A DNA stretch of 40,339 bases, taken from assembly GCF_003334815.1 (NCBI RefSeq), contig NZ_QOWO01000034.1, one strand, 5' to 3'. Below, in pieces: positions 31,211-31,575 of the stretch (positions within the stretch are counted from its first letter, which is position 1; every line of letters begins with the position of its first letter). The stretch comes from Escherichia coli (lineage in GTDB: Bacteria > Pseudomonadota > Gammaproteobacteria > Enterobacterales > Enterobacteriaceae). Below the pieces are notes generated by a model, which did not search any database, was not told the DNA's origin, and was given only the letters and a program-made list of their open reading frames with translations. A program made the position numbers and the translations under genes.

Positions 31211-31575
31211 GGTGTAGGGCCTTCTGTAGTTAGAGGACAGTTTTAATAAGTAACAATCACCGCGATAAACGTAACCAATTTTTAGCAACTAAACAGGGGA
31301 AAACAATTACAGATTTTTATCTTTCGATTACGATTTTTGGTTTATTTCTTGATTTATGACCGAGATCTTACTTTTGTTGCGCAATTGTACTTATTGCATT
31401 TTTCTCTTCGAGGAATTACCCAGTTTCATCATTCCATTTTATTTTGCGAGCGAGCGCACACTTGTGAATTATCTCAATAGCAGTGTGAAATAACATAATT
31501 GAGCAACTGAAAGGGAGTGCCCAATATTACGACATCATCCATCACCCGCGGCATTACCTGATTATGGAGTTCAAT
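31211..31575. promoter_or_regulatory. divergent xylA / xylF control region (XylR and CRP dependent)
   Basis: 365 bp spacer between divergent xylF and xylA starts; CRP-like site tgtgaattatctcaat at about 31463..31478; XylR/CRP control of both promoters is established for E. coli; exact XylR sites not mapped here. Confidence 0.6.

Follow-up and report, generated by a model that had tools for sequence, protein, structure and literature searches.

In Escherichia coli, xylF and xylA are expressed from divergent promoters, PxylF and PxylA, both of which are induced by xylose and repressed by glucose (Ni et al. 2013; Ammar et al. 2018; Barthe et al. 2020). The activator XylR recognizes two sites of about 37 bp, I_A and I_F, each made up of two direct repeats adjoining the -35 element (Ni et al. 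2013). Where, then, do cAMP-CRP and XylR sit in the DNA between the two genes, and is there one CRP site for both promoters? These points were addressed in a 40,339-nt stretch of E. coli DNA (contig NZ_QOWO01000034.1; hereafter the window), in which a preliminary description had attributed the TGTGA-containing sequence TGTGAATTATCTCAAT to CRP and had left the XylR sites unassigned.

The xylF/xylA spacer and its core promoters

The start codon of xylF (31208-31210, minus strand) and the ATG of xylA (31576) delimit a spacer of 365 bp (31211-31575), with a G+C content of 37% as compared to 51% for the whole window. The segment between 31000 and 31800 is 100% identical, over 801 bp, to the reverse complement of the K-12 MG1655 chromosome (NC_000913.3), in which xylA and xylF start at 3730765 and 3731131, respectively. 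Because of this identity, published K-12 coordinates map exactly onto the window (K = 3730765 + (31576 - w), where K is the K-12 position and w the window position). The sequence from 31111 to 31675 was found in 5405 of 5426 complete E. coli genomes, annotated as xylF and xylA. The positions of the ORFs and the K-12 identity confirm the 365-bp divergent spacer of the preliminary description; its view of the spacer as a bidirectional control region dependent on XylR and CRP is upheld by the K-12 identity, the flanking genes and the literature. All features of the xylA/xylF control region that were looked for are present: divergent genes, K-12 identity, the published CRP site and two pairs of XylR repeats adjoining the -35 elements.

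The transcription start sites of Song and Park, as tabulated by Ireland et al. (2020), are 3730807 for xylA and 3731069 for xylF, corresponding to 31534 and 31272 in the window. A generic scan for sigma-70 promoters and terminators detected neither promoter and yielded only one spurious hit, on the minus strand. Such a miss is expected for activator-dependent promoters; the -35 and -10 hexamers listed in Table 1 are putative. An Rfam scan of the segment 31100-31700 returned no RNA family at E <= 1; on this ground, the idea of an RNA element in the leader was dropped. In the mechanically compiled ORF list, xylA begins 12 nt before the annotated start, at another in-frame ATG (31564-31566; 444 aa). 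Its overlap with the Shine-Dalgarno GGAG and its lack of conservation in other Enterobacterales speak for the annotated start at 31576. In a urine isolate, E. coli 2024CK-00475 (NZ_CP157327.1), a 768-bp IS1 element with a 9-bp target duplication lies at the equivalent of 31292-31300, between the -35 and -10 of PxylF. The insertion parts the XylR operator and the -35 from the remainder of the promoter and, judging from its position, probably impairs induction of xylFGHR in this strain.

A scan for XylA in one genome per species identified 80 loci. The divergent xylF/xylA arrangement is kept in 21 Enterobacterales, from Citrobacter to Yersinia, Pectobacterium and Pantoea, with spacers ranging between 317 and 382 bp. 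Alignment of 22 Enterobacterales spacers, the set used for the cross-species matrix scores and column counts given below, revealed two conserved blocks parted by an unalignable, indel-rich center. On the xylA side, the conserved order is TTTTGcGA-N-CGCACA, followed by nATTCTCTnAAT, by the almost invariant GTGTGAAATAACGTAATTGAGCAA, by the -10 and by GGAG. At one locus of Citrobacter werkmanii and three of Photorhabdus, the divergent neighbor of xylA is xylR instead of xylF, so the bidirectional region of these species pairs PxylA with the xylR promoter.

Table 1. Genes, promoter elements and protein-binding segments of the xylF/xylA region, in window coordinates
Feature	Position	Strand	Remarks
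xylF coding sequence	30218-31210	-	330 aa, D-xylose ABC transporter periplasmic binding protein; ORF translation MKIKNILL...; b3566 in K-12
xylF 5' untranslated leader	31211-31272	-	published PxylF start at 31272
PxylF -10 hexamer AAAAAT (putative)	31278-31283	-	A2 and T6 invariant in 22 species; 17-bp spacer; 6 nt from published start
PxylF -35 hexamer TTGTTT (putative)	31301-31306	-	TTG invariant; first T is last T of XylR proximal repeat
XylR operator I_F, proximal repeat (AAGATAAAAATCTGTAAT)	31306-31323	-	RegulonDB center -40.5; Reg-Seq; Barthe mutations; conserved CAATTACAGATTTTTATC
XylR operator I_F, distal repeat (TAAACCAAAAATCGTAAT)	31327-31344	-	RegulonDB center -61.5; Reg-Seq; Barthe mutation; conserved
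Conserved CRP-like 22-mer ATTTATGACCGAGATCTTACTT (candidate)	31352-31373		center -90.5 of PxylF; T.TGA-N4-GATC block just upstream of I_F; unannotated
Unconserved, indel-rich central spacer	31377-31440		alignment of 22 Enterobacterales spacers
cAMP-CRP site TTTTGCGAGCGAGCGCACACTT	31442-31463		center -81.5 of PxylA, -180.5 of PxylF; TGCGA-N6-GCACA
XylR operator I_A, distal repeat (CTTGTGAATTATCTCAAT)	31461-31478	+	contains TGTGAATTATCTCAAT; RegulonDB center -62.5; Reg-Seq; Barthe mutations
XylR operator I_A, proximal repeat (AGTGTGAAATAACATAAT)	31482-31499	+	RegulonDB center -41.5; Reg-Seq; Barthe mutations; GTGTGAAATAAC.TAATTGAG nearly invariant in 22 species
PxylA -35 hexamer TTGAGC (putative)	31499-31504	+	alignment; Ni et al. 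2013 places XylR sites beside -35
PxylA -10 hexamer CAATAT (putative)	31522-31527	+	A2, A5 and T6 conserved; 17-bp spacer
xylA 5' leader	31534-31575	+	from published start; Shine-Dalgarno GGAG at 31566-31569, invariant
xylA coding sequence	31576-32898	+	440 aa, xylose isomerase

The established CRP site and a candidate second site

According to Ammar et al. (2018), who refer to Song and Park (1997), CRP natively binds PxylA at TTTTGCGAGCGAGCGCACACTT, K-12 positions 3730899-3730878 (31442-31463 in the window); swapping this site for that of lac reduced catabolite repression (Ammar et al. 2018). In xylose-grown cells, Reg-Seq identified a CRP footprint between -88 and -71 of xylA, which corresponds to 31446-31463 (Ireland et al. 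2020). The RegulonDB centers summarized in the 2025-26 Reg-Seq supplement are -81.5 (CRP), -62.5 (XylR), -48 (AraC) and -41.5 (XylR) for xylAp, and -82, -75 and +22 (Fis), -61.5 and -40.5 (XylR) and -180.5 (CRP, beyond the Reg-Seq window) for xylFp. All of these centers agree with the window coordinates mapped here.

The window was scanned with a rough, symmetric, 22-bp CRP matrix derived from 16 classical sites, none of which belongs to a xyl promoter; of these, the lac sequence alone was verified in print (Ammar et al. 2018). Fifteen of the 16 training sites score between 11 and 17 bits, the one outlier scoring 4.6. With this matrix, the published site scores 14.7 bits, the best value among 40,318 window positions, and hits of this strength occur in only 0.5% of shuffled spacers. 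In all 22 Enterobacterales spacers, the center of the best hit on the xylA side is separated from the first T of the -35 by exactly 46.5 bp, with scores ranging between 11.9 and 16.6 bits but dropping to 7.4 in Pantoea persica. Residues T4, G7, A8, C16, A17 and C18 of the site are present in every one of these spacers and G5 in all except one (21/22), the center being variable; overall, column conservation tracks CRP information content (rho 0.64, p 0.0015).

The second-best hit in the window, GATCGTGAACTACGGCACACTT (19762-19783; 14.55 bits), falls between divergent ORFs of 332 aa (minus strand) and 282 aa (plus strand). We take this spacer to be, probably, that of yiaK/yiaJ, where a CRP site is expected, and the hit provides a sanity check of the matrix. 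Three hits of 10 to 11 bits (24941, 24975 and 25092) are clustered in the segment 24941-25113, between ORFs of 676 aa (minus strand) and 274 aa (plus strand) that are probably malS and bax.

The sole annotated CRP site is 180.5 bp away from PxylF, and one may ask whether this promoter has a site of its own. The element ATTTATGACCGAGATCTTACTT scores 10.15 bits, just under the training range, and ranks tenth among the 40,318 window positions; a hit this good is present in 8.6% of shuffled spacers. All but one of the 22 species have their best xylF-side hit here, at a distance of exactly 56.5 bp from the -35 (7.2 to 14.4 bits). This is one helical turn beyond the offset seen at xylA and xylE (46.5 bp), and the block has T4, T6, G7, A8, G13, A14, T15 and C16 invariant in the 22 species, with a varying center. 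However, G5 and C18 are found in none of the 22. Furthermore, two Reg-Seq studies in which the interval from -115 to +45 was mutagenized called only two XylR sites at xylF and no activator at ATTTATGACCGAGATCTTACTT, the per-base signal between -101 and -80 being near noise. The RegulonDB summaries carry no CRP entry at 31352-31373; the low-evidence Fis sites that they place at -82 and -75 overlap the element. The conserved GATC could serve another factor. Fis is unlikely to account for the conserved block at 31354-31368, because the block is G+C-rich at its center. A text search of the literature for the ATTTATGACCGAGATCTTACTT sequence retrieved no paper naming the element, only unrelated papers and a paper on ParF. 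The latter uses a 42-mer identical to positions 31310-31351, which we take to be an I_F oligonucleotide of the same laboratory, although the paper is silent on that.

Altogether, these data allow the tentative proposal, which we rate somewhat below even chances, that ATTTATGACCGAGATCTTACTT is PxylF's own weak cAMP-CRP site, held at a fixed offset from I_F across Enterobacterales. The proposal extends the accepted scheme more than it competes with it: with somewhat less than even likelihood, the region would hold two CRP sites, one per promoter, instead of one that is shared. If so, the textbook picture of a single CRP site serving both xyl promoters, 180 bp from PxylF, would be incomplete. The element could explain catabolite control of PxylF from a distance shorter than 180 bp, and as a CRP site it would interest engineers of glucose-xylose co-utilization.

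XylR operators and the TGTGA motif beside the CRP site

The XylR operators extend from 31461 to 31499 (I_A, xylA) and from 31306 to 31344 (I_F, xylF), and in both of them the distal and proximal repeats are direct repeats in a 21-bp register. XylR binds I_A and I_F only in the presence of xylose, with a Kd of 25-33 nM, and a single XylR dimer was proposed to bridge the two operators (Ni et al. 2013). The XylR segments defined by Reg-Seq span -71 to -55 (31463-31479) and -55 to -21 at xylA, and -78 to -55 and -50 to -27 at xylF (Ireland et al. 2020). Mutating the XylR sites abolished XylR titration (Barthe et al. 2020). When Fig. S5 of the latter paper is aligned to the window, the substitutions cluster at 31467/69/71 (I_A distal), 31488/90 and 31497/99 (I_A proximal), 31305/07 and 31314/15 (I_F proximal) and 31335/37 (I_F distal); other, isolated differences seen there (31278, 31282, 31399 and 31446) may have arisen from errors of machine reading.

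When the XylR half-sites of xylA, xylF and xylE, six in all, are set in a 21-bp register up to the -35, they show a common pattern, ....t.AAA.a.c.TAAT, which TGTGAATTATCTCAAT fits. The 21-bp XylR repeats escaped a search for internal repeats, which yielded nothing but weak families of two copies. Within the proximal I_A repeat, position 31495 is an A in E. coli and one Citrobacter (AACATAAT) and a G in the other 20 species (AACGTAAT); this is the sole variable base of an otherwise invariant 24-bp run.

The sequence TGTGAATTATCTCAAT is found where the preliminary description had placed it (31463-31478), with a perfect left CRP half and three of five matches in the right half. It adjoins the established CRP site on its downstream side, shares one base with it, and has its center 18 bp away. 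Its attribution to CRP, in contrast, does not stand. Published, Reg-Seq and RegulonDB positions all put CRP at 31442-31463 instead, elsewhere in the spacer, and the segment 31463-31479 is assigned to XylR. Counting matches to the consensus does not discriminate here: the window contains 20 sequences with two or fewer mismatches to TGTGAN6TCACA, as against 14.9 +/- 4.3 in shuffled versions, and the match of TGTGAATTATCTCAAT is at chance frequency. Immediately to its left, TGCGAGCGAGCGCACA (31445-31460), the core of the published site, likewise differs from the consensus at two positions, and the two cores cannot be separated in this way. The matrix scan, which the preliminary description had suggested as a check, does separate them. 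The 22-mer centered on TGTGAATTATCTCAAT (31460-31481) scores 1.3 bits, misses the training range and ranks 380th out of 40,318 positions, of which the published site is the first; shuffled spacers contain about six positions scoring as well.

Comparison across the 22 spacers gave the same picture. Scores at the position equivalent to TGTGAATTATCTCAAT range from -8 to +3.5 bits, and the bases critical for CRP drift (G5 in 16/22, G7 in 16/22, A8 in 8/22, C16 in 9/22 and C18 in 0/22), the TGTGA becoming TGTGG, TGTGC, TGCGT, TGAGT or TAATA in relatives. Conversely, the center, irrelevant to CRP, is conserved as ATTCTCT.AAT, with ATT.T.T.AA invariant, and column conservation shows a rho of -0.23 with CRP information content. 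Drift of the CRP-critical bases around an invariant, CRP-neutral center argues that TGTGAATTATCTCAAT is the site of another protein. Since the Reg-Seq footprint, the RegulonDB annotation and the mutations of Barthe et al. (2020) coincide at this position, TGTGAATTATCTCAAT is the promoter-distal XylR half-site of I_A, and the CRP assignment was wrong by 18 bp. Register to the -35 (21 bp), shared pattern and cross-species conservation are all those of a XylR half-site. Thus, the XylR sites that the preliminary description left unassigned include the very motif that it gave to CRP.

One could still envisage that in E. coli the distal I_A repeat, while bound mainly by XylR, has a minor second role, either as a weak additional CRP site or in competition between CRP and XylR. 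The TGTGA is intact at this place in E. coli and one Citrobacter, and TGTGAATTATCTCAAT overlaps the CRP 22-mer at 31442-31463 by one base. Yet two CRP dimers with centers 18 bp apart would clash, the matrix score is at background, most relatives have lost the TGTGA while keeping the same architecture, and only one CRP site has been reported for PxylA in the literature; such dual use appears very improbable. The reading of TGTGAATTATCTCAAT as the CRP site of the spacer, to which its half-site matches and its location within a CRP-dependent region, directly beside the true site, lend some appeal, is virtually untenable in the face of the published position of that site, the XylR assignment in both Reg-Seq and RegulonDB, the matrix rank, the pattern of conservation and the chance frequency of an 8/10 core match. 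The motif being the distal XylR repeat of I_A, the useful result is a correction: a TGTGA within an AraC-type operator had been taken for the CRP site located 18 bp upstream. The lesson is that an 8/10 consensus count is insufficient for calling CRP sites.

Order of the regulatory sites and related sugar systems

In conclusion, these results indicate, with little room for doubt, that the spacer is the known divergent PxylA/PxylF region, with one established CRP site at 31442-31463 and with TGTGAATTATCTCAAT as the distal XylR repeat of I_A. K-12 identity, site positions, mutational footprints and conservation, either documented here or cited, support this conclusion; the footprint data of Song and Park (1997) enter it as relayed by later papers and by the RegulonDB summaries. 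The cited mutational work (Ireland et al. 2020; Barthe et al. 2020) shows where the sites lie and that activity requires them.

PxylA and PxylF each have weak (putative) -35 and -10 hexamers and depend on xylose-bound XylR. This AraC-type activator occupies the two direct repeats spaced by 21 bp, the proximal one abutting the putative -35 in such a way that the last T of its TAAT is also the first T of the hexamer. Fusion of the proximal repeat to the -35 is the usual geometry by which members of the AraC family recruit RNA polymerase. Directly upstream of I_A, cAMP-CRP bound at -81.5 provides catabolite control, in the order CRP - XylR - XylR - RNA polymerase; it may help through contact with the alpha C-terminal domain, through DNA bending and/or by assisting XylR. 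Everything established on this region is already known. The region is a textbook case, mapped to the base pair and a gold standard for regulatory mapping, and the finding matters little in this respect.

The closest known system is the K-12 xylAp/xylFp region itself (Ni et al. 2013; Song and Park 1997 and RegulonDB, both as summarized in later sources), with the same genes, start sites, CRP site, I_A and I_F. Being the same locus, it shows no difference; only the CRP placement of the preliminary description departs from it, by 18 bp. The E. coli xylE promoter has a similar tandem order, CRP - XylR - XylR - RNA polymerase (Belliveau et al. 2018). As at xylA, the K-12 xylE repeats terminate in a TAAT joined to TTG, and the center of the reported CRP core, ...AGATCACA, is 46.5 bp away from the -35. 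However, xylE has a single promoter rather than a divergent pair and its CRP site has a poor left half; in the K-12 xylE upstream region (locus L082, 4256-4470), our matrix prefers a neighboring 22-mer at 58.5 bp (10.9 versus 4.3 bits).

The araBAD/araC system resembles the xyl region in having divergent promoters, an AraC-type activator on two direct repeats spaced by 21 bp and overlapping the -35, and a CRP site just upstream, although the latter is centered at -93.5 of araBp (2025-26 Reg-Seq supplement) as opposed to -81.5 of xylA. XylR differs from its counterpart in this system by having a LacI/GalR-type sugar domain and by not binding DNA without xylose (Ni et al. 2013). Moreover, the loop between I_A and I_F proposed for XylR would serve activation, whereas looping in araBAD/araC serves repression (Ni et al. 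2013).
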